From Pseudomonadota bacterium (GTDB lineage: Bacteria; Bdellovibrionota; FAC87; UBA2466), in assembly GCA_043767805.1 (NCBI GenBank), contig JAYUGC010000112.1:1-28631 (forward strand): 28,631 nt of DNA. The letters are read 5' to 3'. Under the pieces are notes generated by a model. That model was not told the origin of the DNA. It made no database searches and was given only the letters and a program-made list of their open reading frames with translations. Below are positions 5,974-25,209 of this stretch, piece by piece. Position 1 is the stretch's first letter, and every line of letters begins with the position of its first letter. The translations under genes and the position numbers were made by a program.

Positions 5974-6012
5974 GAGAGCCCCTCCTAAAGAAAAATCCCC
6001 GTGTAGTGTCAA

Positions 6013-6162: not shown

Positions 6163-7026
6163 ATGAACGGGCTTTTCCTTTTTCTACTAGTCGCGATGGG
6201 TGCCGCCGGCGCGGCGGACAAAGACACCAAAAACGTCTTGTCCACGTTCCGGCGGGAAGCCATTCAAGGGGCTCTTGGCGAACAGATTCTTCGCCTGACT
6301 CCCGAGGACTCCCCAGCTCGCGCCACTTTCCTCGTCCCCGTCAAAAATACGAAGCGAAAGCCCACGCTCCTTCAGCTCTATCTTTACCGCCCGGGCGATC
6401 GGCCCACGCTGCTCTCCGATCCTCGCGGGCTAAAGCCGGAAAGCGGCGCCTTCGACACCCTCGTTTCCCTCGTGGGTGAAGACCAAGACGGTGACGGGCT
6501 CATCGACGTGCACCTCGTGGCCCGCTTCAAAGGCGCCAACGGCAAGCCGTTCGAGAAATCCGCTAAGTACCGCAACGAAGGCCCGGCGGGTTTTCGTCTC
6601 CTAACGGCGCCTCCGCCCCCGGCGGCTCCGAAAACCGGCTTTGCTCTGGGTCTCGATTGCCGCTACGTCGCCCTCGACGGAGGCTGGTGGGTGGCGGCGT
6701 GTAAAGAAGGAGAGGCCGCGCTTGAAGTCCGTCTCAAACTCAACGGAGAAGTCCGACTGGCCTTCGAGGCGCCCAATGCCACTTCAATCATGGTGGAAGG
6801 GCAGGACTCGCGCGCCGTAGCCATCAGCTATGACGGCCCGGGGTGTCGTATCGTCAAAATCCTTCGCCTCAAAGACGGCAGACTCGTCTCCGACACCGAC
6901 TGCGCCCCTTCGACTCAATGCGCCCTTACTCGTTTTCCCAAGGTTCCCGACTGCCGAGGGACCGTCGAGTGCGGGGGCGTCGCGGGCGACTTTCGCTGGA
7001 AGCGGGAGTTCGATGTTTGTCAGTAA
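6163..7026 (+). CDS. Secreted hypothetical protein with a DxDGDG Ca-binding-like loop and a Cys-rich C-terminal half
   Basis: Signal peptide MNGLFLFLLVAMGAAGA; EDQDGDGLIDV motif; Pro-rich linker; 8 Cys in the C-terminal half; GAGG SD. Confidence 0.7.
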   Translation: MNGLFLFLLVAMGAAGAADKDTKNVLSTFRREAIQGALGEQILRLTPEDSPARATFLVPVKNTKRKPTLLQLYLYRPGDRPTLLSDPRGLKPESGAFDTLVSLVGEDQDGDGLIDVHLVARFKGANGKPFEKSAKYRNEGPAGFRLLTAPPPPAAPKTGFALGLDCRYVALDGGWWVAACKEGEAALEVRLKLNGEVRLAFEAPNATSIMVEGQDSRAVAISYDGPGCRIVKILRLKDGRLVSDTDCAPSTQCALTRFPKVPDCRGTVECGGVAGDFRWKREFDVCQ

Positions 7027-9457: not shown

Positions 9458-10012
9458 ATGGCTTTGACTCCTTCCTCCATGGCTCCCTTAGGAATGCTCG
9501 CTCCAGAGTTCTCTTTGCCCGATACCGAGGGGAACCTAGTGAGTCTGTCCAACGCGGCGGGTGCGAAGGGTTATCTTGTGGTGTTTATTTGCAACCACTG
9601 CCCCTACGTAGTTCACATCCGCAAGGAACTAGCAACGCTGACTAGCGAGTATCAAAAGAAAGGCATCGCGGTCTTTGGGATTAATTCCAATGACGCGGCA
9701 AGGTATCCCGCCGACTCTCCCGCCAAAATGAAGGAAGAGCGAAGGCTCCAGAAGTACGAGTTTCCTTACCTCTTCGATGAGTCCCAGGACGTGGCGCGCG
9801 CTTACCAGGCCGCTTGCACTCCGGATTTCTATCTTTTTGATGCCGCGAAAAGCCTGGTTTACCGCGGTCAATTCGACGATAGCCGGCCTAGTAGCGGCAT
9901 CCCCGTCACAGGCAAAGACTTGAAGCAGGCCATGGACGAGGTTCTCGCGGGCCGTAAGCCCACCTCAAATCAACGCGCGAGTGTTGGCTGCAACATCAAA
10001 TGGATTAATTAG
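9458..10012 (+). CDS. Thioredoxin-fold redoxin (AhpC/TSA, PRX-like family)
   Basis: APEFSLPD, FICNHCPYV (CxxC), INSND...YPADSP, AACTPDFYLFD, YRGQFDDSRP, SVGCNIKW. Confidence 0.93.
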   Translation: MALTPSSMAPLGMLAPEFSLPDTEGNLVSLSNAAGAKGYLVVFICNHCPYVVHIRKELATLTSEYQKKGIAVFGINSNDAARYPADSPAKMKEERRLQKYEFPYLFDESQDVARAYQAACTPDFYLFDAAKSLVYRGQFDDSRPSSGIPVTGKDLKQAMDEVLAGRKPTSNQRASVGCNIKWIN

Positions 10013-13000
10013 GCAGGTACGAGCGGACGGCCGCCAGCGCGTTCTGACATTTCGCGAGCGTTTCCTCGGAAAGATAAGGCTTGGGCCCGCTTTCGACGAC
10101 GGCCGCGACTTCACGGGACGTAGGCTCGGTGCCCTGGGCTTTGAGCTTCGTGACTTCCTCCGGATCGATGCCGAGCACGTCTTTGATGTTAGTCGCGCCC
10201 GCGGAGATGGCGCGGATCGCGGTGCGCTCCATGGCGGCGTGAATGGCATTGGAGCGCTCGATGGGATCGAGCTGAGCCTCTCCTTTTTCATCCACCACGG
10301 CGATGAACTCGGGCGTGCTTCGCATCCAGCCGGTAATTTTCAAATTCTGTTCCACTCCCGGGACCCCTTCTTCCGCATGCAAGCGATCGGCGAGTGAGTC
10401 GACGGGAAACTGCATCCGGGCCACGTGCTCGCCCTTGGGTCCTTTTTGCTGAATCCACTTTTGAAGCGCAAGGTTCGAGGGCGGCACGATCGGGCCGTCC
10501 GTATCGATGGCTTTCGCCGCGGGAATCGGAACGTATTTGCGAAGCAAGTGCACGAAGGTGGCCCAGCGCCCTTCTTTTCCGGGTTCTTCCAAAGGAATGC
10601 CGGTCATGCGGATGGAGACGAGCGTGCAGGCCTGCGAACAGTAAGTGCCTTGCTCGTAGTACTTACCGGCCGTATGCTCTTTCTTCATCGTTCCGTCCGG
10701 CTGACGAACGTCGACCATGCCGGCGCCGTTGTCGACCCAGCTAAAGTGCGTGCCTTCTTCCATCATGATGCGCCATCCGCGCGCCACGGCTTCGCGCCAG
10801 GTCTCGATCCATTTCTTGGGATTCTTTTCGGCATGGAGCCGCATGAAATCTTGCTTGTTCAAAAGCTTCATCCAATCACCTCGAAGGGGATTGGCGTCGG
10901 GAATAACTTTGCCATCGGCATCGACCGTTGGCTTATACGCTTTCCAGGCCACCGGGTCCCAGCCGTCGCGGCGGACCTTTTCCACCATCTCCTGAGCGTA
11001 CTGATGGAATTTCACCGGATCGATGTCGGCGATGCCGACCCAACCATAAGAGTTCTCATTGGCGAAATGCTCGAGTCCCACGAAGCGCACGCCGGCAAGC
11101 TTCGACTCGTCATGATAGGGATAATTGTCCGCGACCAAAGTTGACGCGATCCCCGTTTCAGGATCGGTGTGAACGATGAACTCTCCCACGTGAGAAAAGC
11201 CTGAATTTCCCCGATTGATCTGAGAAAGGCCAAGGCGCAACCGATCCACGGGCGACAATCCGTTGCTGATGCTTTTTCCTTCCACCGGAACGAAGAAGCC
11301 CAAAACGTTGCCGATGAGGCCTTCTTGCTTCGCTAGCTTGATGTCGTGAGGCACCGCCGCGGAAGTAATGACGGCGGCTTCGGAATTGAGCGAACGGATA
11401 TAAGCTAGGGAGCCGGTATGCACCTCGTTGCTTTGGATCTTTGCGTCGGCATCTCTCATTACGACTTGGTTCGAGACAAAGTTCTCGAGATACTTATCGT
11501 GAGCGCGCACGGCTGCCGCAAGCTCCGTCTCGAGGCCAGAGTCCTTTTTGAGCCGCGCCTGACGCACGATACTCAGAGCGACCCCTCGGCCCACCCATTG
11601 GGTATTGCCGATATGGGGATCGAGATGAATCTTGAAGAGATAGTCCGCGAAAAGACCTGTCACTTTGGCGATATCTTTTCCGATGACCGCTTTCACGCGC
11701 TCGTACTCGGCTTTGTCGCCGTCGGAAACCTGGGTCTCGCTTCCGGGGGCGAGGTACTTTTCCAGGAATTTTTCCCCGTACATGGCCTGCAGGTAATCGG
11801 AAACCAGGCGTTCCAGCTGCAAGCGGCCGCGTTCCCGCTCGGCTCCTTCGAAATAGGTTTCGATGTCCTTGGCGCGCGCGATTAGGTCGGGATTTTGCCG
11901 GACCACCATCGGCACTTCTTTCACCGCGGCTTCCGGCTTTAGATCGAGAAGACTCGCCGCATATTTGAGAAAGCGCTCGCGAAAAGCCGAGTCGTTTAGA
12001 TTGGGCTCGGCGCCGGCCATGAGGTGCAAAGTCAGCTCACGGGCGATATCGACCATCCTGTAGCGCTCGATATTGCCTTCCAGAGTCGCTTTAGCGAGAG
12101 CATTGACGGCTTTCCCCGCATCCAGGCTCGCCTTCATGGTCGCCGAGTACTCGTCGAGACCCATGCGCTTTAAGAAACTTTCCAAGGCCGCCCGACTTGC
12201 CGGCGATTCCATCTCGAGACCCAGTACGGTGTTCTCGCCAACGCTTGAACCATAAGGCTTCGGCTTCGGAGCGGAGGCGATTTCGGAAGCGGCTTTCTCC
12301 TGGCGGGCCCGGGCGCGGGCGGCGTAACTGCCGCCGAGCACTTTACTCGGGCCGCTCTTATCAATGGCGAGACGGTAATCGCGCACGTTTCTTTCGACCG
12401 CCGTGAGCAGACCGCTCAAGTGATCGTCGTGCTCGGTGGCGCCGACCTGCCAAGGAACCGCTTGTAAAACACTTCTCAGCTCACCGTCGGCTTGCGGCAC
12501 GAAGGGCTCCGTACGAGAGAGTTGCCTTTCATGACTGGAAACCGGCGGGTAATCTATGATCTGCACGTCGCCGACCGTCGGCTGAAGCGCGAGACTGACG
12601 GGCGCGACGATGCGTTTGGCCGTCGGAAGATCTTTCAATCCCGAAACTCCCAGTCGACAGAGCAATGAGAGCGGAAAAGCCAAATGACTGTGATTCGGCT
12701 CTACATCGAAGCCCATGGTGAGCTTGGGCGCCAGTACGCAACCTTTGGAGCAATAACCAGCCCCCAGGAAATCCGTGAAGCCCGTATCAAAATGCACGCC
12801 CTGCTTTAAGAAATAGTCCCAGCCCTTTTTCGAGCGTTGAGAATAGAGACGGGCAAAAGCTTCGGGATCTTTCTTGGCGAGCTCGACCCATTCCCGCATT
12901 TCCTTGCGATCGAAAAGCACCGGCCAGTCACGCTGGGTGGCCGAGGCCTCCAAAGTCCCTGAGCCGGGGTTGTAAACGCTGACCGTGGATTTCCAACCGG

Positions 13001-14288
13001 GGCGGTTCGCTTTTTCCACTTGGCGAACGAATTCCGCGGCTAGCTTCTTCGGATCTTGAGTGGACACCATAAGTCGGCGGTTGGACCCTTCCTGAGCGAA
13101 GTTGCCGAGCGAAATGATCCGCTCGCCGCCGAAAACGGGGTCCGGATAAAGGTCGCGTACTTCGACTCGAACGAGACCGGTGGCATAGTCCGTATTGTGA
13201 AACGCTTGTCCGACGTGAGATACGCCATGATTGAAGAGACCGCGATCCGCGAGCCAGCGCCGCGCTCTTCCCCAGTAGGTCTTTTGATCGGGCTCTTTAC
13301 CCTCTTCCCAATGCAATAACCGCGATAAAGCCGTGCCTAGAAGCCGCTTCGAGTAGGCCTTTAAGCTTTGGATCGGTCCGGGTCTCGCCGCGAAGGCGAT
13401 GTCCGCCGCCCTCTTATTACCGGCGTGCTCGTAGACGAAACTTCCATCGTTCACCTTCACGACGACCGGATTGCCTTTTCTGTCTTTGAAAATAGGTTCG
13501 GCGCTAATTGAATTTTCGAGATGCGCTCCGTACCGAAGAGCCGCTGCGTGCATTTGCGTCTCGAGCGGCCCATCCTTAACGCCCTTCTTGCGCGAATGCC
13601 TCACCATGGAAAGCGCCACCGCATCTCCCAGGTAATTCGACTGCCCGAGCTCCGTATCCATGCGCATCAAAGTCAAATAGGAAAGCACCTTCCCGCGCAC
13701 TTCCTTTAGATCCGCCTGAAAGGCGTCGTGTTCCGGAGTCCCGGGACTCGCCAAAAGCGAGCGAATCTTCTCGGTGCCATAGGAGGTATGCATGAAATCG
13801 TTGGCCACGCGTTCCGCGGCGCTCAAAATTTGTTTGGAAATGAAACGGGTGGCGTACGCTTCTCTTTCCGCCGCTGTCCGCACATTGCTCGGCCATTCGT
13901 CCGGCAGCTCTTGCGGCTTCAAAACGAGAAGGCGCGCGGAGAAGTCCGCCACTTTCTTTTGTAACTCCGGTGAGGTGTTGAGCTCTCCGCGAGTCTTGTC
14001 GTAAATCCACGTCGCGAGCTCGCGGGCTTCATTGACCGCCTGATAGCGGCGCTGTGAGAACGCCATGACCTGATCGGAAACCGGCGAGAGCCCGATTTGC
14101 AGACGATCTCCGGCCTCGACTTCAGCGGCCTGCGTCCTGCGGGCCTCGGCAATCTCGGCCGAAAAATCCCGGAACCCCATGTCGCGTAGCCAGGTATCCA
14201 TCTCCGATCGTTCGCGAGACGGCTCCGCAAAGCAGAGCGACGCGAAAAGAACGAGCGCAAGCGCGGTTTGGTAACGAAATGCCTTCAA
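10005..14288 (-). CDS. Large secreted protein with two tandem ~650-700-aa modules, each ending in a permuted papain-like (YiiX/YaeF, NlpC/P60 superfamily) domain
   Basis: Likely TTG start at 14288 after GGGGGG, followed by signal peptide ...TALALVLFASLCFA. Duplicated motifs GVSHVG/GFSHVG, GYCSKGC/TYCSQAC and VAPVSL/VPPSNL occur in His-before-Cys order. The ORF-track start is 14342. Confidence 0.72.
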   Translation of the reverse strand: MKAFRYQTALALVLFASLCFAEPSRERSEMDTWLRDMGFRDFSAEIAEARRTQAAEVEAGDRLQIGLSPVSDQVMAFSQRRYQAVNEARELATWIYDKTRGELNTSPELQKKVADFSARLLVLKPQELPDEWPSNVRTAAEREAYATRFISKQILSAAERVANDFMHTSYGTEKIRSLLASPGTPEHDAFQADLKEVRGKVLSYLTLMRMDTELGQSNYLGDAVALSMVRHSRKKGVKDGPLETQMHAAALRYGAHLENSISAEPIFKDRKGNPVVVKVNDGSFVYEHAGNKRAADIAFAARPGPIQSLKAYSKRLLGTALSRLLHWEEGKEPDQKTYWGRARRWLADRGLFNHGVSHVGQAFHNTDYATGLVRVEVRDLYPDPVFGGERIISLGNFAQEGSNRRLMVSTQDPKKLAAEFVRQVEKANRPGWKSTVSVYNPGSGTLEASATQRDWPVLFDRKEMREWVELAKKDPEAFARLYSQRSKKGWDYFLKQGVHFDTGFTDFLGAGYCSKGCVLAPKLTMGFDVEPNHSHLAFPLSLLCRLGVSGLKDLPTAKRIVAPVSLALQPTVGDVQIIDYPPVSSHERQLSRTEPFVPQADGELRSVLQAVPWQVGATEHDDHLSGLLTAVERNVRDYRLAIDKSGPSKVLGGSYAARARARQEKAASEIASAPKPKPYGSSVGENTVLGLEMESPASRAALESFLKRMGLDEYSATMKASLDAGKAVNALAKATLEGNIERYRMVDIARELTLHLMAGAEPNLNDSAFRERFLKYAASLLDLKPEAAVKEVPMVVRQNPDLIARAKDIETYFEGAERERGRLQLERLVSDYLQAMYGEKFLEKYLAPGSETQVSDGDKAEYERVKAVIGKDIAKVTGLFADYLFKIHLDPHIGNTQWVGRGVALSIVRQARLKKDSGLETELAAAVRAHDKYLENFVSNQVVMRDADAKIQSNEVHTGSLAYIRSLNSEAAVITSAAVPHDIKLAKQEGLIGNVLGFFVPVEGKSISNGLSPVDRLRLGLSQINRGNSGFSHVGEFIVHTDPETGIASTLVADNYPYHDESKLAGVRFVGLEHFANENSYGWVGIADIDPVKFHQYAQEMVEKVRRDGWDPVAWKAYKPTVDADGKVIPDANPLRGDWMKLLNKQDFMRLHAEKNPKKWIETWREAVARGWRIMMEEGTHFSWVDNGAGMVDVRQPDGTMKKEHTAGKYYEQGTYCSQACTLVSIRMTGIPLEEPGKEGRWATFVHLLRKYVPIPAAKAIDTDGPIVPPSNLALQKWIQQKGPKGEHVARMQFPVDSLADRLHAEEGVPGVEQNLKITGWMRSTPEFIAVVDEKGEAQLDPIERSNAIHAAMERTAIRAISAGATNIKDVLGIDPEEVTKLKAQGTEPTSREVAAVVESGPKPYLSEETLAKCQNALAAVRSYLPN

Positions 14289-14325
14289 GAACCCCCCAAA
14301 ATGCCCAGATAACACCTCTGCATGC

Positions 14326-14341
14326 TGCAATGAATGTTCCA
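14326..14341 (-). promoter_or_regulatory. Putative sigma-54 (-24/-12) promoter
   Basis: Minus strand TGGAACATTCATTGCA, close to the consensus TGGCAC-N5-TTGCA, about 38 nt upstream of TTG 14288. Confidence 0.65.
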
Positions 14342-14465
14342 CGGACCGCTCGAAAGTCGCTTTCGGCGGATGGGGTATCTCATTGAAACGCTGGCGAAAT
14401 CAGAGGCTCGTATTCGTTTGGTGGGGACTTTTGGAACGTACTCCGCGAGTGGCCGGTCTCAAGAC

Positions 14466-14501: not shown

Positions 14502-16706
14502 CTAGGGGCGAAGGTATTGCACGATACTTTGGAGCCGCTGGTCCGCCCTCTTAAAGGCCTCGTTATCGGTGGCAAGTTTCTCGCCAGTGGGCAAGCGCAG
14601 CTGGGCGATGGCAACCACGGCTCCGCCCTTGATTCGGCGGATGACGACGGGCACTTGGGCGACGGTCGACGAGTGACGTTGGAGCAGGACATTGAACTCG
14701 AAGTAGTACTCGTCCGTCGGGAAAGACTTCGCAAGTTGTCCCGAGAGAGCAAGCGACCCGAAATCTTCGAGGGAGCTCGCCTCGACCCCTACCTCTTTCG
14801 TCAAAGCCCTGCCCTTTTCGACTTCGGCGCGCAACACGCCAAGCCTCGCCTTTCCCGCGTAAGCTTGCCGAAGCTGAGCGGAGCTATAAGGGAGAGCCTG
14901 ACAAGGAACCGGTTTGCAGAGGCTAGGGGCGAGATCGGACGGAGTAAAATCGAGTACGAGAACCTCGCCGGCAAACGCTCTCAGGGGCAGCTCTTGACCG
15001 CTTGGCACGGTGATGCGCTTGTCCGCCGCGTTAGGAATGTCAGTCACGCGGCTCAGGGAGCTCTCGCTAGCGGCCGCCTGTTCGAGGTGTCGAGCCTCAT
15101 TAAAATGCTCTTGCAGATAATCCTGATAGGCCCTTTCGAGCTGCGATAGCTGGACTTTCGCGGTTTGCACCGCCTCGGCGGGGGCCTCGGGACCGCCGCG
15201 ACGGCGAGAGTTCTCGTAAGCATCGAGGCTCTTACGAAGCTGCTGCCGGCGAAAGGTCAAATCTTGAAAAATCGGATCGATCGCAATCTGTTTGCCATAC
15301 TCGTCGGGAGACCTGGCGTCTTTGAGTACCTTGGCATAAGGGCGATTCCCTTTGGCAAGAACGAGGTCATCGATGCCAACTTTTCCGCCGTCAAAAACGT
15401 CGGGAAGGAGACCGACTCGAACGGACTTCGCTCCCGCCGCTTCGAGCGCTTTTCCAATGGCATAGGCCGCGCGCTGACTGTCATTTACGCCGTCCGCTCG
15501 AGCTAAGCCTTTCGCCCGGGCATCTCTGTCCAGAACCACGATGAACTCTTTCGCTCCCGACTCAACCAAACCACGGATCATATTGTGATCCCATTCGGTG
15601 ATTCCGGGTAAACCCACGGTGATCTTGCCGCTCGCTTGTTCCGCCACGAGCGTCTTAAACTCGCCTTCCGTTATCACCACGGTTTTTCCCTTGGCCCCGG
15701 AAAGGGCACCGCCGTTATAGAGTTTTTCCTCGGGAGTTAGCCGTCTATCGAGCGAACGGTTGAGCGGCCAACCGATGTACTTCGGAGCCAGGGGATCGGG
15801 ATTCCCCATTTGCCGCGTTCGCCATAGCGGAAGCGTCTGGTGATCTGGGTCCGAAAAGAAAGGGATCTTGATGGAGTCCCGGCCGTTGACGGAATAACAG
15901 GGCCCTCCTTGCGCATCGAAGGAGACTTTCATCCAGCCCGCGTCTCTCATTTCGGCTAGGGAGTACCCATTCTGCTTGGCCCACTGGCGCAGGGGAACGA
16001 AGTCCTCACTGAAGTAAGCGAGACCGGCCCTATCGGCGAGTCCCTCGGGCCAGCCCCGATCCGCGGCGAACTGAGCGACCTTCGCTTGAAGCTCCGGCTT
16101 CGACCGAAGGTCACTAATGAGCTTCTTGTTGAGATCGGAAATCCTGTGAAGCTCTTCCGCCGACAACTTGCGGCCGAGTAGGTTTGCCTTGAACTCCGTG
16201 AGAACTTCCGGCGTCCCGCCTCCCACCTCCAGAACTTCACCCGTCTCGCTCACGACAAAATAATTCACGGAGCCTAGACGCCGGTACTCACTCGCGACAT
16301 GGTAGCCAAAATCCGCGTGTCCGATGACTTTCGCTCCGGGAGGTACGTGCCCGGGCGATTTACCAACGACAAACTTCGCGGACGCATACTTTTGCGTTTC
16401 GACAGGGGGGCGGAGCCGAGAATCGCTCCCAGAGTTAACGCGCATCTGGAACGGCTGTTTTAGATTCACTGAAGTGGCGGCCTGTAGCGCCCGAGCCGAG
16501 CTTTGCCATTCGCTCGTTCCAGCGAGTAGGTCCACGTAACGTTGCTTGTCCAGCGAAATGCTGGGGCGGGGAGCGAGGAAACGAAAGCAGTTGAAGGCGA
16601 AGGACGGTTGTCCCCAGAGCAAAGCGAAGCCCACTACGCCCGTAGAAATGGCGCGCGCGATCTTAGTCGAGCTGAATGTGCGGCTTCCGAACAAAAGGTA
16701 ACCCAT
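14502..16706 (-). CDS. DnaG-like primase catalytic core (Toprim_N + TOPRIM) with an apparent N-terminal signal peptide and no CHC2 zinc finger
   Basis: AADRGW...RAGLAY, EMRDAGW, RDSIKIPF, PKYIGWP, KLYN, VVITEGEFK, FIVVLDRD and KVGIDD are collinear with DnaG core motifs. The N-terminus TKIARAISTGVVGFALLWGQPSFA looks like a Sec signal. Confidence 0.75.
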   Translation of the reverse strand: MGYLLFGSRTFSSTKIARAISTGVVGFALLWGQPSFAFNCFRFLAPRPSISLDKQRYVDLLAGTSEWQSSARALQAATSVNLKQPFQMRVNSGSDSRLRPPVETQKYASAKFVVGKSPGHVPPGAKVIGHADFGYHVASEYRRLGSVNYFVVSETGEVLEVGGGTPEVLTEFKANLLGRKLSAEELHRISDLNKKLISDLRSKPELQAKVAQFAADRGWPEGLADRAGLAYFSEDFVPLRQWAKQNGYSLAEMRDAGWMKVSFDAQGGPCYSVNGRDSIKIPFFSDPDHQTLPLWRTRQMGNPDPLAPKYIGWPLNRSLDRRLTPEEKLYNGGALSGAKGKTVVITEGEFKTLVAEQASGKITVGLPGITEWDHNMIRGLVESGAKEFIVVLDRDARAKGLARADGVNDSQRAAYAIGKALEAAGAKSVRVGLLPDVFDGGKVGIDDLVLAKGNRPYAKVLKDARSPDEYGKQIAIDPIFQDLTFRRQQLRKSLDAYENSRRRGGPEAPAEAVQTAKVQLSQLERAYQDYLQEHFNEARHLEQAAASESSLSRVTDIPNAADKRITVPSGQELPLRAFAGEVLVLDFTPSDLAPSLCKPVPCQALPYSSAQLRQAYAGKARLGVLRAEVEKGRALTKEVGVEASSLEDFGSLALSGQLAKSFPTDEYYFEFNVLLQRHSSTVAQVPVVIRRIKGGAVVAIAQLRLPTGEKLATDNEAFKRADQRLQSIVQYLRP

Positions 16707-16721
16707 GTCTCAACAAACGGA

Positions 16722-16759
16722 CCGCGGCCTCCCCCGCCCAAAAGCCAGGGAGGCCGCGG
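16722..16759. terminator. GC-rich 12-bp hairpin between the 214-aa gene and the primase-like gene (weak terminator or processing/stabilising hairpin)
   Basis: ccgcggcctccc (16722-16733) pairs with gggaggccgcgg (16748-16759). There is no clean U-tract on the minus strand (tccgtttgttg). Confidence 0.45.
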
Positions 16760-16771
16760 CATTAGTTCACT

Positions 16772-17416
16772 CTATTTGTCTCGGAAGAGACTTTCGAACG
16801 TCTGGTACTTGAAGAAATCGAGTTTGCGATGCTTGCGCTTCGCCAGCGTCTCTCCGGAGAGCTCGCTATCGAACGTCTTGCCGATGATGTGCAGGTCGTC
16901 CTCGTCGGAAAGGCCCTTGATCTTGGTGATGCCGCTATAGGATTTTCCGCTCGCGTTCATGACTTCGTTAACCGACTGATCGGGGAGCATGACGTAGAGT
17001 TGTCCGTCGTTGGAAATCATCCACGTTTTGTTGCCGCGAATGAGAACGTCTTTGATGCCAGAAGCATCGACCGTGTACTTCGTGACGGGGCACTGGCCGT
17101 GATTCGGAACGCCCGGTCCCTTGACCTCGAAAACGACGAGCTTATCGGAATTTTTCAGCAAGAAAACTTCGAGACGGGTCTTCCCCGAGTCGCTGGTGAC
17201 TTGCTTACATTCCTGAACGTTCTGATCCATGCGCTGAATGTCGTTGTTGGACAAGATACAACCCGCTTCGCGCACGCGCTTGGCGCAGCGCTGAGCCGCG
17301 GTCTCGCCACTACGGCCACCGGAGCTGGAAGCTCCGCTGTGCTCGGCTTTGGAAATATTCGGCGTAAGGTTAAGGACGGCAACCGCCGCCACGAACCCGA
17401 AGAAACTAACTTTCAT
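16772..17416 (-). CDS. Secreted hypothetical protein with 4 Cys
   Basis: Signal peptide MKVSFFGFVAAVAVLNLTPNISKA; AAAGGG SD; beta-rich mature region. Confidence 0.75.
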   Translation of the reverse strand: MKVSFFGFVAAVAVLNLTPNISKAEHSGASSSGGRSGETAAQRCAKRVREAGCILSNNDIQRMDQNVQECKQVTSDSGKTRLEVFLLKNSDKLVVFEVKGPGVPNHGQCPVTKYTVDASGIKDVLIRGNKTWMISNDGQLYVMLPDQSVNEVMNASGKSYSGITKIKGLSDEDDLHIIGKTFDSELSGETLAKRKHRKLDFFKYQTFESLFRDK

Positions 17417-18511: not shown

Positions 18512-19069
18512 TTAGTTGATGCCGTACGAGTGGAGAATGTAGGCCATGTTGTCGTCGCTGATGCGCTTATAGTGACGCTCTTTAACCTTCGAAATCGCCG
18601 GATTCGAATCCGGCATGACGAGGTCGTCGCCCGACGTGAGCTTCAGACCGTACACGTGCTGCGCGGAGCTGGAGCCCGACCAGATATTGGTCAAGTCGTT
18701 TCCGACGAGCGAGAAGTAACCTTCCGACGGGGCCTCTCCAGGAACCATGCGTTGGTAGGAAAACTTGAACTCATCGTAGTCTTGAATGAACGAGAAGAAG
18801 TGCCCATGCGAGGCGCCTTCGTCGACGGCGGTTTCCGTAGTCTGGCTCGCGAAAGTGATACCGACGAGTTGCCAGTTACCGAGAAGCTCGTTGAGCTCAA
18901 CCGTTTCAGCCGCGGCAACGCCAACCGGCGTGGCAGGCGCAGTAGGCGTGCCTTTGTCGCGAGGATCGTACGGATCGTTACCCGCTGCCGGCGCGAGCGG
19001 ACTCTTTTTGCTGCAGCCGGTAAGCCCGATGACGAGCGCCGACGCCACGAATACTAATTTACGGATCAT
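18512..19069 (-). CDS. Lipoprotein, possibly lipocalin-like beta barrel
   Basis: ATG 19069 has a GGGAG SD; lipobox LTGC; Pro/Ala linker; LLGNWQLVGI resembles the lipocalin GxW motif. Confidence 0.75.
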   Translation of the reverse strand: MIRKLVFVASALVIGLTGCSKKSPLAPAAGNDPYDPRDKGTPTAPATPVGVAAAETVELNELLGNWQLVGITFASQTTETAVDEGASHGHFFSFIQDYDEFKFSYQRMVPGEAPSEGYFSLVGNDLTNIWSGSSSAQHVYGLKLTSGDDLVMPDSNPAISKVKERHYKRISDDNMAYILHSYGIN

Positions 19070-19134
19070 AACTACTCCCGATGATGATGCAGGCCCCTGC
19101 GAGACCCAATGCCTCGCTTGCACCGGGGCTCCTG

Positions 19135-20037: not shown

Positions 20038-21882
20038 ATGATGCGGTTGTGGTTCTCCCTGGGAAGCTCGTTGGTCTTGGTATTTCTTACGGCCGCCGGC
20101 CCCGCGGCGGGACCCGGGGCGCGCCTCGCCGCAGAAGCCCGGGCGCTGAAAGGCAAAGGCCGGCCGGAAGCGGTGCAAATGGGCGAGACCCGTGCAACTC
20201 TGCTCCAAAGCTTGAGTGAGCTGGATTCCTTTCTGACCCATTCGGGGAGTGCGATTGCGGCGGGATGGAAGCGTTATCTGAGATGGACCGAACTGCAAAA
20301 AGAGCTCGCGAAGCCCGCTCTTTCCGCCGACCCGAAGGTGCTCTTCACTGTCTACCAACTCTACCTCGCGAGCCAGAACGGCCTTGAGCTCGCGCCCTTC
20401 CTCAAAGTAAGAACGGCGCTCGGCTGGCATGCGCAAAGAGTCTCGGTGGCGGCGACCGCCGATTTCTCCCAGCGATTCGATGACCAGCTCGAAGCGCTCG
20501 CGGGAAAGCTGTCTCAATGGGACGCGAGTCAGGACTCCACCGCCCTCTCGAGGGCGGGAAGCTCGCTCGGATGGCTGACCGCCTCGACGCAAGTGGCTCC
20601 GTTGGTTTCTCACGTGCGCGCCGAGCTCTCCCACCCGAACGCCCGGTTTTTGATCGATGCGAAACTCATCCCTTTCGATACGTTCACGCGAAACGTCGAC
20701 CAGAGCGAAGTGATTCAAGATGCCTTCCAAGACATCGCGCTCACGGTGCGGGCCCGCACTCAAGGGCAGCTCACCGCGTCGCTCGCGACCGGTCGGCAAA
20801 CCGCGGAAATGCTCTTTCATCTGGATGCGTCCACCCTCGCCAGCTCCGTCGGGTACAAGGATCCGGTGACCCTGTGGGGCACGAGCAACACCCGCACACT
20901 CGTCGACAAATCGCTTTATCTGGATGCCGAGGGCATTCACACCCGGCCCGCGGTGGCCCGCTCCTGGACAGCTTCTCGCATCGACAACCTCTCCGTGCCT
21001 CACCAGCTCTTTTGGCGCATTATCGAGCGCATCGCCTGGCGCAAAGCGCTCGAAATGCAGCCCGCCGCGGATGCGGCCATGTCGCGCAAAGCGGAAAGCC
21101 GGTTCGCGCCTCAGGTGGATCTAGAGTTCGCGAAAATCGCCGATAACGCCATCGAGTACGTGAACTCGTTTTACAAAGAGAACTTGTTAAAGCCCATGCG
21201 GCGCGCGGGAACCTTCCCTGAGCTCTTTCAAATGTCGAGTAGCGCCCAAGGCATCGGCCTCGTGGCCAGCAAAGCCGACGGTTTTCAGCTCGGCGCGCCG
21301 ACGCTTGCGCCCGCGCTGCTTGCGGCGCCCAAGGGCATCAGCTTTCAAGTCCACGCTTCCTTCCTGGAAAATTTCGGCGAGCGCTCGCTCGGCGGAAAGA
21401 CCGTGACCGATGAGAGCGTGGAAACGCTCGTGCGCGTGCTCGCCGGAGAAATTCCCGAAGCGCTTTGGGTAGGCGACGGCGCGAAACGCTGGTCAGTCTC
21501 GTTCCCCACCGAGGGAGCCGTGAAGGCCCGTTTGGAAGGCAATCAGTTCGAGCTCAGATTTCTCATGAACGGCTCGACCGTCGATGGAAAAGCGTCGCGC
21601 CTCCCCTTCGAAGTCTCGGCTAAATACGGCTTTCAGCGAGACGTGGCGGGCGTCAAAACCGTGCGGCAGGGCAAGGTCCTCGTGCAGGCCCCGAAAAGCG
21701 CCGCGCCGGAAGACCTCGACCGAATCGCGTTTTTGACGACAAAGTTCGACGCGTTCTTCGCGGAAGAGATCCGGCTAGATTTCAACTCCCTGCCCGGGAT
21801 GATTCCCACGAAGGGCATGGATCAGCTCCGCTTGAGGGACGTTCGCATCGAAAATGGCTGGGCCACTACCGCGGTTTACTAA
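20038..21882 (+). CDS. Secreted hypothetical protein (helical N-terminus, long beta-rich body)
   Basis: 614-aa ORF with signal peptide MMRLWFSLGSSLVLVFLTAAGPAAG and normal composition; it fills the gap between flanking genes. Confidence 0.75.
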   Translation: MMRLWFSLGSSLVLVFLTAAGPAAGPGARLAAEARALKGKGRPEAVQMGETRATLLQSLSELDSFLTHSGSAIAAGWKRYLRWTELQKELAKPALSADPKVLFTVYQLYLASQNGLELAPFLKVRTALGWHAQRVSVAATADFSQRFDDQLEALAGKLSQWDASQDSTALSRAGSSLGWLTASTQVAPLVSHVRAELSHPNARFLIDAKLIPFDTFTRNVDQSEVIQDAFQDIALTVRARTQGQLTASLATGRQTAEMLFHLDASTLASSVGYKDPVTLWGTSNTRTLVDKSLYLDAEGIHTRPAVARSWTASRIDNLSVPHQLFWRIIERIAWRKALEMQPAADAAMSRKAESRFAPQVDLEFAKIADNAIEYVNSFYKENLLKPMRRAGTFPELFQMSSSAQGIGLVASKADGFQLGAPTLAPALLAAPKGISFQVHASFLENFGERSLGGKTVTDESVETLVRVLAGEIPEALWVGDGAKRWSVSFPTEGAVKARLEGNQFELRFLMNGSTVDGKASRLPFEVSAKYGFQRDVAGVKTVRQGKVLVQAPKSAAPEDLDRIAFLTTKFDAFFAEEIRLDFNSLPGMIPTKGMDQLRLRDVRIENGWATTAVY

Positions 21883-22667
21883 GGCCCGCCCACGAGGGCG
21901 TTGCAGGCGCCGAGCGCAATCTGCGAACCTTGATAGTCACAGCTATCGGTGACCTTCGTTTTCACCCAGCCCGCTTCCGCTCCCGTGCCGGAGCTCGGGA
22001 AAGAGCAGACCGTCTCGTCTCTCGCGTGGCGCGTGGCCTCGAGACAGAAAGAGAGCTGAGACGAAGCACCACACCATTTATTGGTGCGGATATTGGCCGC
22101 TTTCGCGCCGAGCCCGGTGTAGGTACACACCACTCCGCCGCCCGCCGCTCTCGTAGCCTCAAGGCACTCGGCGCGGGAGCTGTGGGGACGCCGGCCAAGA
22201 CCCATGCCGGTCTCCACATTCGTCGGCCGCCAGCCGGACTCGTTCCAGCCTTCGGGGCCGACCGGCATCGACGGCGTAAAGAGCGCGCATACCACGCCGC
22301 CGCTCGCGGCCGTTCTGACTTCGTCGCAGTTGGCTTGAGAATCGTGTGTATCGATCCGCACGCCGGCGAAACGGCGCACTAGCTCGGAGCGAGCTCCGTT
22401 CGGGCGACAAAGCAGAGAGTCCGCAGTGAGGTCGCGCTCTTTCTCGCGGACCGGGTTGTACTCCCAGTCGCGCGGCAATTCCTTATAGATCGAAGACGTA
22501 TGTTGAGATGGATCGTAAGCTTTCACGAGGCCCGCGCTTTTGACTCGCGGAAGTAACGCTTTGTAAGCCGCAATTTTCGCCGGCGGCATGAGGCTCACCG
22601 CGCGGTTCAAAGGGCGCGCGCTGGCCAAAGGGCTCAGCAAAGCCACAATCAACAAAAGGAAACCCAC
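21879..22667 (-). CDS. Secreted Cys-rich protein with three internal repeats
   Basis: GTG 22667 has a GGAGAG SD; signal GFLLLIVALLSPLASA; repeats CDEVRTAASGGVVC / CLEATRAAGGGVVC / CLEATRHARDETVC. Confidence 0.7.
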   Translation of the reverse strand: MGFLLLIVALLSPLASARPLNRAVSLMPPAKIAAYKALLPRVKSAGLVKAYDPSQHTSSIYKELPRDWEYNPVREKERDLTADSLLCRPNGARSELVRRFAGVRIDTHDSQANCDEVRTAASGGVVCALFTPSMPVGPEGWNESGWRPTNVETGMGLGRRPHSSRAECLEATRAAGGGVVCTYTGLGAKAANIRTNKWCGASSQLSFCLEATRHARDETVCSFPSSGTGAEAGWVKTKVTDSCDYQGSQIALGACNALVGGP

Positions 22668-22856
22668 GGGCGTCTCTCCCCGTGAACGGTCCAAGAATGG
22701 AATCGGTAGTTTTAGTATGGCTCGTCAGGCGAAAAGATCAGGCGGAGCCAGCCATTGCCCTTAACCGCCGTTAAACTAGCCCGCCGAGTCATGTCTGAGC
22801 CTTGACGTCCTGCTCCGAGATCCGGATTCTGCGATCTCAAACTTGGGGGAATGCAG

Positions 22857-23816
22857 ATGAAGGTAAATCTCGGTTGGGTTTTAGTTAGCGTGGGTTTGGC
22901 CGCTCTGTTCGCATGCTCGGATAAAAAGGCGGAAGAGACTCAGCAAGGCGAGGCCAGCGCGCCGAAGCTAATGCTCGAGTGCTCTTTGGCAAGTCCGACG
23001 CTCATGGATGGCCCCCCTCTCAAGCTGAAAGTGGCGAAGCTTTGGATTGCCTCCGAGCGAACCAGGATCCTACGCGCGTTCGAGTTTCCCGCGGGCCGAG
23101 TCATCCTCAATCCTTATTCCCTGAAAAAATCGGAGATCGCACCCGCCTGGATCACCGAGCTTTCGGAACGAAAGCTCGCGACCGATTGGAGCTCCGCTTT
23201 CCGCTTCCGGTTTCGCGATCGGGAGAAACTGATTTTGCTCGATGGCGCGGAGAGCAGCGGCTTACTCGTCACCCTCAACTCCGTGCAAAAGGGACTCGGG
23301 CTCGCGGACAAGGGCGGAGAGCTAGCTTTGCTCCACTGCGCGAACATCGAAGCGGGCACGGTCACCGCCCATCAGCAGCTCGCGCCCGACGATGCTCCCG
23401 TCGAGCCCGAGCCTCAAATCGGTTGCGCCGATGGAACCACCGAACAGGATTTTGGAAATAAGATGATTGGTTGCACGGGCAAAGTGGGGTGGCTCAAGCG
23501 CGCCACTCTCTGCGGCGTCGGCTGGAAAGTTTGCACGGCAAAAGAGTGGGTGGCCCGCCGCACGAATCAACCGCCGAAATTCAACTATTGGACGGACGAC
23601 GCGCTCAAGTACGGCGGCTCGAGCTCGGGCAATTGCTCCGTGTCGCTCCAAGCCGGAAATAGCTGCTCGGCGGACTCGCCCATGCGAGTGTGTATTTCGG
23701 AAACCGATCCGCTGGGCAATGCCTGCACCTGGACTCGCTGCGGGTTGGATACCACTTCCAATCAATTCTTCGGCGGCTGCGTGCAAGCTTCGTCTTCCAC
23801 GCTGTGTTGTCAGTGA
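22857..23816 (+). CDS. Lipoprotein with a C-terminal disulfide-rich domain
   Basis: GGGGGA SD before ATG 22857; lipobox LFAC; C-terminal GCADGT...LCGVGWKVC...FFGGC...LCCQ with 12 Cys. Confidence 0.78.
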   Translation: MKVNLGWVLVSVGLAALFACSDKKAEETQQGEASAPKLMLECSLASPTLMDGPPLKLKVAKLWIASERTRILRAFEFPAGRVILNPYSLKKSEIAPAWITELSERKLATDWSSAFRFRFRDREKLILLDGAESSGLLVTLNSVQKGLGLADKGGELALLHCANIEAGTVTAHQQLAPDDAPVEPEPQIGCADGTTEQDFGNKMIGCTGKVGWLKRATLCGVGWKVCTAKEWVARRTNQPPKFNYWTDDALKYGGSSSGNCSVSLQAGNSCSADSPMRVCISETDPLGNACTWTRCGLDTTSNQFFGGCVQASSSTLCCQ

Positions 23817-23817
23817 G

Positions 23818-25209
23818 CTAGCGAACTAGCTGGGCGGTGAAGCGGCGGCCCTTGATGCGCCCGCCCTGAAAATGAGAGAGCGCCGTCCGCACGGCGACTT
23901 GAGCGACCGCGACGAAAGCAACGCGATCCAAGATCTCGATCTTTCCGACCTGATCGCCTTTGAGTCCGCCCTCGCCCGTGAGGGCGCCGAGGATGTCGCC
24001 GGGACGAAGCTTGTCTTTGCGGCCGCCGCCGAGGGAAATCGTCGCCATGGGAACTTCCGCGACCGGCTTCTCGGAGGGCGCGGTCTTTAGCTCGCTCGCG
24101 TGGCGAAGGGTCAGCTCGATGCCGGTGATGGCCTGGATGCGCTCGAGCTTCGCGCTTTCCACGTCGGTCACGAAGGAAACGGCAAGGCCTTTGGCCCCCG
24201 CCCTTCCCGTACGGCCGATGCGATGGACGTATTGCTCGGGGTCCGACGGCAAATCGTAATTGACCACGGCATCTAGTCCCGCGACGTCGATGCCGCGCGC
24301 GGCGACGTCGGTCGCGACCAAAAAGCGAGTGCTGCGGTTTCTAAATTTCGCCATCACTCGTTCGCGCTCGCTTTGTTCCAAGTCGCCATGCAAGCGATCG
24401 CTCGAGAGACCCGCCTCGCGGAGAACGGTCGCGACTTCGTCGACACGAACTTTCAAGTTACAAAAAACCAAAGCGGAAGTGAGCGGACGGGACGCGAGAA
24501 ATGCGAGCAGCGCTTCGGGCTTCTTCTCGGCTCGCACGATGTAACCGATGGCCTCGATGTCGGGCACTTCCGCGACGTCCGTCTCCACGGTCACTCGCTG
24601 GGGGTTTTTCTGAAAGCGGCGGCTCAAGTTTTCGATGGTCGAGGGAAACGTCGCCGAAAAAAGCGCCGTCTGCCGCTCCTTCGCCGTCTTTTGCAAAATC
24701 GTCTCGATGCTTTCCCGAAAGCCCATGTCGAGCATCCGATCCGCTTCATCCAAAACGACCGTTTTCACCGTACTGAGATCTAGCGACTTGCGGTTCAGAT
24801 GGTCGAGAATGCGGCCAGGAGTACCCACCACGACTTGCGCGCCATGTTCTAAGGGCGCGAGCTGCAGGCGCACCGGATGACCGCCCGAGAGGATGAGGAC
24901 TTGAAGGTCTTTCTTATAGCGGCCGAGCTTTCGCACCTCGCGAGCCACCTGCGTGCAGAGCTCCCGGGTGGGGCAAAGTACCAAAACCTGGAGCTGGCGG
25001 GTGGAGGTATCCGTCTTTTCGAGAAAAGGGATGGCGAAAGCCGCGGTCTTGCCGCTTCCGGTCTTGGACTGCCCGATGAGATCCCGGCCTTCCAAAAGCA
25101 TAGGAATACTCAAGGCTTGGATGGGAGTAAGGCTATGGTAGCCCATCTCCGCGACTACCTGGCAGATGCCTTCAGATAGCGCTAAATCTGGGAAGCGGGT
25201 CGGCGGCAT
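23818..25209 (-). CDS. dbpA: ATP-dependent RNA helicase DbpA
   Basis: Q motif TPIQ, TGSGKT, PTREL, DEAD, SAT, HRIGRTGRAG and the C-terminal DbpA RNA-binding domain GGRKDKLRPGDILGALT. Confidence 0.95.
   Translation of the reverse strand: MPPTRFPDLALSEGICQVVAEMGYHSLTPIQALSIPMLLEGRDLIGQSKTGSGKTAAFAIPFLEKTDTSTRQLQVLVLCPTRELCTQVAREVRKLGRYKKDLQVLILSGGHPVRLQLAPLEHGAQVVVGTPGRILDHLNRKSLDLSTVKTVVLDEADRMLDMGFRESIETILQKTAKERQTALFSATFPSTIENLSRRFQKNPQRVTVETDVAEVPDIEAIGYIVRAEKKPEALLAFLASRPLTSALVFCNLKVRVDEVATVLREAGLSSDRLHGDLEQSERERVMAKFRNRSTRFLVATDVAARGIDVAGLDAVVNYDLPSDPEQYVHRIGRTGRAGAKGLAVSFVTDVESAKLERIQAITGIELTLRHASELKTAPSEKPVAEVPMATISLGGGRKDKLRPGDILGALTGEGGLKGDQVGKIEILDRVAFVAVAQVAVRTALSHFQGGRIKGRRFTAQLVR

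Follow-up and report, generated by a model that had tools for sequence, protein, structure and literature searches.

We identified, in a member of the phylum Bdellovibrionota, a gene whose product combines the polymerase core of a DnaG-type primase with a predicted export signal. The gene lies on contig JAYUGC010000112.1 (assembly GCA_043767805.1), of which we analysed positions 1 to 28,631 of the forward strand; this whole 28,631-nt stretch is hereafter the window. The gene occupies window positions 14502..16706 on the minus strand, is present in one copy in the genome and consists of an uninterrupted open reading frame (ORF) of 734 amino acids (aa) followed by a stop codon. Primases are textbook cytoplasmic replication enzymes. 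We tentatively propose that this protein is instead an accessory exported enzyme that would perform primase-like nucleotidyl transfer outside the cytoplasm of its producer.

A DnaG-type polymerase domain flanked by two family-specific domains

A preliminary description of the window had read five motifs of the DnaG catalytic core in the protein. We found all five, in the right order, within residues 276-447 (window 15366-15881): RDSIKIPF at 276-283, PKYIGWP at 308-314, TEGEFK at 346-351, LDRD at 392-395 and KVGIDD at 442-447. Chance can be rejected as the origin of these motifs because both a sequence profile and a structural model lead to DnaG cores. A profile of 18 homologues aligned colinearly with the RNA-polymerase domain of Bacillus subtilis DnaG (5guj) over profile positions 177-426 (E 0.0011), and the protein also matched the family phrog_47, annotated as DNA primase (E 1.1e-7). 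For the structure, we used an AlphaFold2 model computed from 67 sequences, which has a mean predicted local distance difference test score (pLDDT) of 92.1 and a predicted template modelling score of 0.89, with pLDDT < 50 at residues 1-15 and 27-50 only.

Searching 48,161 chains with VIA-align gave Z scores of 22.4 to 5guj (287 residues aligned, root-mean-square deviation 7.3), 20.4 to 5w33 (271 residues, 3.4), 20.0 to 2au3 and 18.6 to 1dd9, and the matches to DnaG cores cover model residues of about 182-537. Proteins that have the TOPRIM fold only, such as RNase M5 and topoisomerases, reached Z <= 10.6. Furthermore, a Foldseek search of the PDB returned 26 matches at E <= 0.001, of which ranks 1-19 are all DnaG catalytic cores (best match 5guj, E 9.6e-13, target template modelling score 0.70), followed by the Twinkle, T4 gp61 and T7 gp4 primases; in BFVD the named top matches are mostly phage primases. 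The model therefore bears out the TOPRIM-containing DnaG-type core of the preliminary description. Moreover, as modelled, the whole three-subdomain polymerase domain is present, beyond TOPRIM alone: residues 183-535 (15102..16160, minus strand) comprise an N subdomain, the TOPRIM subdomain (residues 339-476; 15279..15692, minus strand), which carries E347, D393/D395 and D446/D447, and a C-terminal helical subdomain.

Family models place the protein less firmly. DUF3854 (PF12965) was matched at a borderline 23.0 bits against a cut-off of 23 (E 8e-05) over residues 342-454, which correspond to the TOPRIM part, and the same family was matched by 18/18 homologues at E <= 0.05. The Pfam match to Toprim_3 stayed below threshold, and no NCBIfam family, including TIGR01391, matched at E <= 1.

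Next we examined conservation of the active site in an alignment of 67 sequences that share 23-47% identity with the query. Thirteen positions are invariant in 67/67 (R217, G257, R298, Y310, E347, G348, G368, I369, D393, D395, K442, D446 and D447), and K309 is conserved in at least 90% of the sequences. The acidic metal ligands, which had been noted as intact, are thus E347, D393, D395, D446 and D447 and are found in every member. In the 5guj profile alignment, R217, R298 and K309 stand opposite B. subtilis R148, R224 and K232. In Staphylococcus aureus DnaG the equivalent residues R146, R222 and K230, together with N233, are described as direct contacts to the nucleoside triphosphate (NTP) (PMC5429622), and three of these four contacts (R217, R298, K309) are retained here.

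The preliminary description had also seen neither a zinc finger nor a DnaB-binding domain, and this holds. The protein has only four cysteines (40, 270, 597 and 602), the sole close pair of Cys/His residues (2-4 residues apart) is C597-x4-C602, no CHC2 pattern occurs in the sequence and Pfam contains no matching zinc-finger family; likewise no helicase (DnaB)-binding domain was found by Pfam or NCBIfam. A check suggested by the same description showed that the genome carries a separate canonical dnaG on contig C5 (TIGR01391, 429.5 bits against a cut-off of 283.6) in which the CHC2 finger is visible. The primase-like protein is therefore distinct from the replicative primase.

The core is not bare, however, and in this respect the earlier picture of a signal peptide followed by a primase core has to be amended: the core stands, but two conserved family-specific domains flank it. 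At the place of the DnaG zinc-binding domain is an N-terminal domain (residues 51-182; 16161..16556, minus strand) with conserved FGY and GR motifs, whose profile found nothing among PDB sequences (best E 0.13). At the place of the helicase-binding domain is a C-terminal alpha/beta domain (residues 536-734; 14505..15101, minus strand) that contains the C597-x4-C602 pair (window 14901-14918, minus strand) and, modelled alone, reaches a pLDDT of 90.5. For the fold of this C domain, the best VIA-align match has Z 4.3 (Card1) with 0/48161 chains at Z >= 5, Foldseek gave no match at E <= 0.001 and the profile found nothing among PDB sequences (best E 0.029). Many of its weak VIA-align matches, all below noise, are PD-(D/E)xK nucleases, and neither acidic nor lysine residues are invariant in the domain. 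Relatedness between the N and C domains was undetectable (hhalign probability 0.08%).

N-terminal signal, clade-specific cysteines and family distribution

The signal-peptide call comes from a crude purpose-written anatomy script together with conservation. A Sec-type signal peptide is predicted at residues 1-37 (16596..16706, minus strand), with an n-region of net charge +3 (R9, K15, R18), a 14-residue h-region (19-32) and a c-region that ends in SFA, so that cleavage is predicted after A37, between SFA and FNC. Three residues past this point stands Cys40 (16587..16589, minus strand; context FNCFRFL). Among short forms of the family, that is the query and 16 distinct genome loci with newly called ORFs, the n/h/c anatomy with small residues at -3 and -1 was found in 17/17, compared with 0/14 for long relatives. 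Homologues lacking the hydrophobic N-terminus had been named as a reason to abandon export; in the short homologues this N-terminus is conserved in all 17.

In the alignment of 67 members, 35 have the hydrophobic N-terminus, and the cysteines follow it: the equivalent of Cys40 is present in 34/35 signal-bearing and 2/32 signal-less members, and the C597/C602 pair in 21/35 and 3/32, respectively. Cysteines restricted in this way are as would be expected for folding in an oxidising compartment, and the N-terminal anatomy points to export by the Sec route. Other routes were not indicated, as the lipobox L-[AS]-[GA]-C does not occur (across the family the conserved Cys is preceded by N, D, S, R, A and others, and here the context is SFAFN-C) and a twin-arginine motif is missing, with no RR in residues 1-20 of the query or of most homologues.

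We considered whether the post-signal cysteine marks a wider set of exported proteins. A genome-wide search for a signal followed by C-x-x-hydrophobic-hydrophobic returned 12 of 1554 ORFs with a crude signal, which is about the frequency estimated for chance, and the idea of a genome-wide regulon with this tag was dropped. Separately, two proteins with a SAM-dependent methyltransferase domain have a signal peptide and then a Cys, one in this genome (G000:C58:40943-41719, L058) and one adjoining the primase-like gene in an Oligoflexia metagenome-assembled genome (MAG) (L008:5702-6472, minus strand). They have no mutual BLASTP similarity and are further examples of enzymes of cytoplasmic type that look exported.

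A word-based search had found 17 homologues, and an exhaustive search of representative sequences found 95 proteins at E <= 0.001, including the query, and 60 at E <= 1e-30. In a tree built on core columns only, leaving out the signal and cysteine columns, a single clade of 37 rows unites 33 of the 35 that bear a signal (Shimodaira-Hasegawa-like approximate likelihood ratio test (SH-aLRT) 97). The sister of this clade is a group of 12 long signal-less forms (SH-aLRT 94), and the signal label changes 6 times on the tree compared with 22.7 in shuffles. In a set of 21 genome loci, the names attached to 14 of the 15 closest are Bdellovibrionota, Bdellovibrionaceae, Bdellovibrio, Bacteriovoracaceae, Pseudobdellovibrionaceae or Oligoflexia, and the fifteenth, named "Deltaproteobacteria bacterium", belongs to the same phylum as the genome of the window. 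Viral contigs gave only distant, TOPRIM-only matches (17 loci, 26-32% identity).

The long relatives (1300-2100 aa) start with the same unit of N domain, core and C domain, at hidden Markov model (HMM) positions of about 50-700, and have 600-1400 residues in addition. All catalytic residues are kept, and signal peptide, post-signal Cys and Cys pair are missing. The three-domain unit would thus predate its export, the signal and the cysteines having been added by the Bdellovibrionota clade. A double-stranded RNA (dsRNA)-binding motif (dsrm) is present near the C-terminus of 9/37 scanned long forms, and some long relatives contain a weak second TOPRIM. None of the long forms was found in 401 Bdellovibrionota genomes, where all matched frames have 673-767 aa. 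Carriers include one Rickettsiales MAG and one Patescibacteria MAG, with 0/200 and 0/300 among other genomes of these groups, so that a distribution limited to parasites and predators is unsupported, both carriers being singletons. The possibility that long forms are fusions with the 1445-aa gene downstream of the primase-like gene was rejected, as no similarity was found (best E 0.15). The long signal-less relatives (P0026-P0038 and others; L018:6221-11302; L019:43-4272) may by themselves form a DnaG-like family not described so far, and the signal-less sister forms with dsRNA-binding motifs suggest that the family as a whole, short forms included, is an undescribed branch of DnaG-like enzymes that has a non-replicative role.

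Genomic setting

Comparison with G171, a genome of the same genus that is 93% complete, shows that the gene is a clean single-gene presence/absence difference. G171 has no primase-like gene and keeps both flanking genes, which lie 447 nt apart there and 2678 nt apart here. For this reason the 214-aa gene upstream and the 1445-aa gene downstream are not dedicated partner or immunity genes, and no adjacent immunity gene travels with the primase-like gene. We found no convincing flanking repeats, and the GC content is unremarkable. In agreement with the earlier statement that phage and plasmid genes are missing nearby, a Pfam scan of the 18 window ORFs revealed no phage, plasmid, integrase, relaxase or other mobile-element gene. 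Genes of a type IV secretion system (T4SS) or conjugative element were found neither in these 18 ORFs nor in 48 neighbour ORFs of 10 related loci, and PADLOC defence-system models gave no match to the primase-like protein. Across the 21 loci, tblastn with 17 window proteins revealed no conserved adjacent neighbour.

M1 is the earliest start codon downstream of the upstream stop. Between the stop of the 214-aa gene and this ATG is a GC-rich hairpin (16721..16760, minus strand; -43.6 kcal/mol, z -4.0), which is probably the terminator of the 214-aa gene, whose orthologue in G171 is also followed 3' by a hairpin and a T-run. A scan for sigma-70 promoters and terminators gave background level. The locus sequence is listed in four DNA runs of one study, with no RNA run listed.

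Several further features of the neighbourhood were observed. A gene for a DbpA-type DEAD-box RNA helicase (23818-25209, minus strand) lies 3-7 kb from the primase-like gene, as it does in L012, L013, L014 and L017 (Bdellovibrio or Pseudobdellovibrionaceae), which we take as loose synteny in these four loci, and an unannotated gene of about 745 aa stands between the two in L013, L014 and L017. The 1445-aa protein (10005-14342, minus strand) has a signal-like N-terminus, no match in Pfam, NCBIfam, PADLOC or PHROG, and, within its sequence, a unit of about 590 aa that is duplicated in tandem (26% identity, E 1.7e-42). Signal-peptide or lipoprotein-like N-termini without a Pfam family are found in most ORFs around the gene (3055-6012, 6163-7026, 16772-17416, 18512-19123, 20038-21882, 21879-22694 and 22851-23816), and one neighbouring ORF encodes a 321-aa lipoprotein-like protein with 15 cysteines. 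Judged by these N-termini, the region is rich in predicted exported proteins without recognised function.

Related loci show associations with nucleases. An EEP (Exo_endo_phos) nuclease/phosphatase domain is fused to the C-terminal side of the homologue P0007 and to the N-terminal side of P0043, and the homologues in loci L004 and L005 overlap at their stop codon with an EEP gene. These two EEP proteins have their own signal peptide followed by a Cys tag much like that of the partner (EEP and partner, respectively: ...QSCSKVF and ...LSCDKVF; ...QTCRQFF and ...LRCEGVF). In total, an EEP link turned up in two of the 10 scanned neighbourhoods, and the gene downstream of the homologue in L006 is unrelated to the EEP protein. 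An RNase_T gene lies beside L015 and a ParB-like nuclease gene near L017, and the remaining neighbours are unrelated housekeeping genes. Apart from these, a neighbour in an Oligoflexia MAG (L007:16-2235, plus strand) encodes a protein of 739 aa that ends in ricin-type beta-trefoil lectin domains and matches CDtoxinA weakly.

Possible functions and comparison with known systems

Under the reading that we tentatively prefer, the protein would be made with a cleavable Sec signal and exported from the cytoplasm, and signal peptidase I would trim it near A37 to a mature protein of about 697 aa, composed of the N domain, the DnaG-type RNA-polymerase domain and the C domain and carrying the cysteines seen only in the exported clade. 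Outside the producer cytoplasm, the DnaG-type cleft may hold single-stranded nucleic acid, and short RNA oligomers would be made from NTPs by a metal-dependent phosphoryl transfer for which the TOPRIM centre (E347, D393, D395, D446, D447) is responsible. As the zinc finger is missing, template specificity may be relaxed or absent. The enzyme would act at a site that offers both NTPs and exposed DNA or RNA, and an attacked prey cell or its immediate surroundings is the most plausible one. Primase-like transfer is favoured because strict conservation extends over the whole polymerase domain and most of the NTP contacts, because TOPRIM nucleases keep the TOPRIM fold only, and because the dsRNA-binding motifs of the relatives would suit an A-form duplex product. 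Activity without the finger has a precedent, since T7 primase minus its zinc-binding domain is described as making random diribonucleotides (PMC6163395).

A number of observations weigh against this reading. The main weakness is that polymerase chemistry needs NTPs and hence access to the cytoplasm of another cell, as the periplasm and the medium are normally NTP-free; such access, which we assume, would be plausible for predators. At the active site, the Asn that forms the fourth NTP contact is replaced by Gly312 here and by Ser in the consensus, K351 stands at the position of DnaG D269, as it does in DUF3854/Toprim_3 proteins, and the 5guj profile alignment shows no conservation of the residues with which B. 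subtilis DnaG binds its template (W167, R202 and R204), so that template recognition probably differs from that of DnaG. The hhalign match to the DnaG of the same genome is weak (probability 5.9%, E 0.0064), although the motifs paired in the preliminary description were aligned. With a 9-residue Kyte-Doolittle maximum of 2.12, the h-region of the query is only moderately hydrophobic and ranks last among the signal-bearing members. Four short proteins that belong to the signal-bearing clade (P0010, P0012, P0034 and P0049) are without a signal; their rows start at HMM positions 38-173, which may reflect gene calls that were truncated. Furthermore, the family is rare, being present in 10 of 401 genomes of the phylum, that of the window included, and in 0 of 33 of its own family, and no neighbourhood is conserved across loci. 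This rarity shows that the function is accessory and is not a core function of predation. Finally, the EEP partner was not found in this genome when searched with the L004 EEP protein, and the EEP and RNase_T neighbours of other loci suit a degradative role as well as a synthetic one.

A degradative role is in fact a serious rival, although on balance we consider it doubtful. An exported TOPRIM nuclease would use the E/DxD metal centre to cut DNA or RNA of prey or of the surroundings, as a degradative enzyme of the predator alongside EEP-type nucleases. TOPRIM centres do cleave in RNase M5 and OLD-type nucleases, whose folds are matched by residues 339-476 at Z <= 10.6, and a nuclease would require no NTP supply outside the cytoplasm. 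The EEP fusions and overlapping genes, the RNase_T and ParB-like genes and the mostly PD-(D/E)xK top matches of the C domain, weak as these are (Z <= 4.3, below noise), are all in line with cleavage. However, a nuclease would hardly be expected to keep the entire three-subdomain polymerase domain with three of four NTP contacts invariant, and to our knowledge no DnaG-type core is a nuclease. The C domain is also without the invariant acidic or lysine residues that could argue for cleavage, and the EEP link is limited to two neighbourhoods and two fusions, none of them in this genome.

Two further explanations appear improbable. The protein could be an exported binder of nucleic acid or nucleotides without turnover, for example a periplasmic or surface receptor for DNA or RNA or a nucleotide sensor, which we regard as very unlikely. 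DnaG cores are intrinsically low in activity, and archaeal DnaG is an RNA-binding subunit of the exosome. In addition, conservation of the three NTP-contacting residues is no proof of catalysis, because the B. subtilis substitutions R224A and K232A are reported to lose more than half of DNA binding and R148A to cause a slight loss (PMC5429622). Nevertheless, five acidic metal ligands that are invariant in 67/67 sequences, including very divergent ones, form the pattern of an active enzyme. It is just as improbable that the protein is not exported at all, either because the hydrophobic segment is an uncleaved membrane anchor or because the N-terminus was called upstream of the true start, the product then being, as with other DUF3854 proteins, a primase or Rep-like protein that stays in the cytoplasm and stems from a degraded mobile element. 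The match to DUF3854, a family that includes plasmid Rep proteins of cyanobacteria according to PMC10079941, lies at the cut-off, and the single-gene indel relative to G171 and the patchy distribution are as seen with mobile genes. But there is no helicase domain, the 18 window ORFs hold no integrase, relaxase or other mobile-element gene, no flanking repeats were found and viral contigs match only distantly and in TOPRIM alone. The basic n-region and small -3/-1 residues predict an N-in, C-out, cleaved topology, the cysteines are specific to the clade, the signal recurs in 17/17 independent ORF readings, and M1 is the first start codon available.

A more specific form of the exported primase-like enzyme can be imagined, which we put forward as a speculation with a modest chance of being right. 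In this scenario the zinc-finger-less primase would enter or contact the prey cytoplasm and turn prey NTPs into short RNAs, with exposed prey DNA or RNA as template or with none. Replication or transcription would be jammed in this way, or nucleic acid would be marked or prepared for an EEP phosphodiesterase exported alongside. If so, it would be the first Sec-exported polymerase of primase type and would represent a new class of weapon used between cells. The Cys tag that follows the signal in both it and the EEP partner would mark a dedicated route of delivery or pairing.

The class of enzyme has been described before; the novelty lies in its predicted exported setting, in the two domains on either side of the core and in the Cys tag behind the signal. 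With the RNA-polymerase domain of bacterial DnaG (5guj, 5w33, 2au3, 1dd9 and 4edg) the protein has in common the core, the motif order, the TOPRIM acids and three of four NTP contacts. Unlike DnaG, it is without the CHC2 and helicase-binding domains and without a TIGR01391 match; further differences are its predicted signal peptide, the two unrelated domains beside the core, K351 in place of D269 and Gly/Ser in place of the NTP-contacting Asn. Archaeal DnaG and the finger-less T7 fragment are likewise DnaG-type cores that function without a zinc finger, but both are intracellular, whereas the present protein is predicted to be exported. The long signal-less relatives have the same three-domain unit and catalytic residues; they differ in the missing signal and cysteines and in their 600-1400 extra residues.

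The best Pfam match is to the DUF3854/Toprim_3 primase-like domains of plasmids and conjugative elements, such as CyRepA, with which the protein shares the "EGxxK" motif around the TOPRIM glutamate. CyRepA-type proteins are described as cytoplasmic plasmid Rep proteins with a C-terminal DEXDc helicase domain (PMC10079941), and the literature found mentions DUF3854 only in such cyanobacterial plasmid Rep proteins (PMC10079941); the present protein, by contrast, has no helicase, a chromosomal setting and a signal peptide. We found no description of an exported DnaG-type protein in the full-text literature, judged largely on titles and the openings of abstracts. The nearest parallels are TraC1 (RP4) and SogL (R64), DnaG-type primases that leave the producer and act in another cell, and the only primases known to do so: they are encoded by conjugative elements and travel through a conjugative T4SS together with single-stranded DNA (PMC5512222). 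Here, in contrast, the signal is of Sec type, the gene is chromosomal and no T4SS or plasmid genes are nearby.

Taken together, a conserved clade that combines an intact catalytic centre with an export signal and compartment-specific cysteines would imply that primase chemistry is used outside the producing cell, which would widen the known range of secreted nucleic-acid enzymes of predatory bacteria. With one gene, soluble domains and a high-confidence model, it offers a directly testable system and a natural example of a DnaG core that has neither the zinc finger nor the helicase partner of its replicative counterpart.

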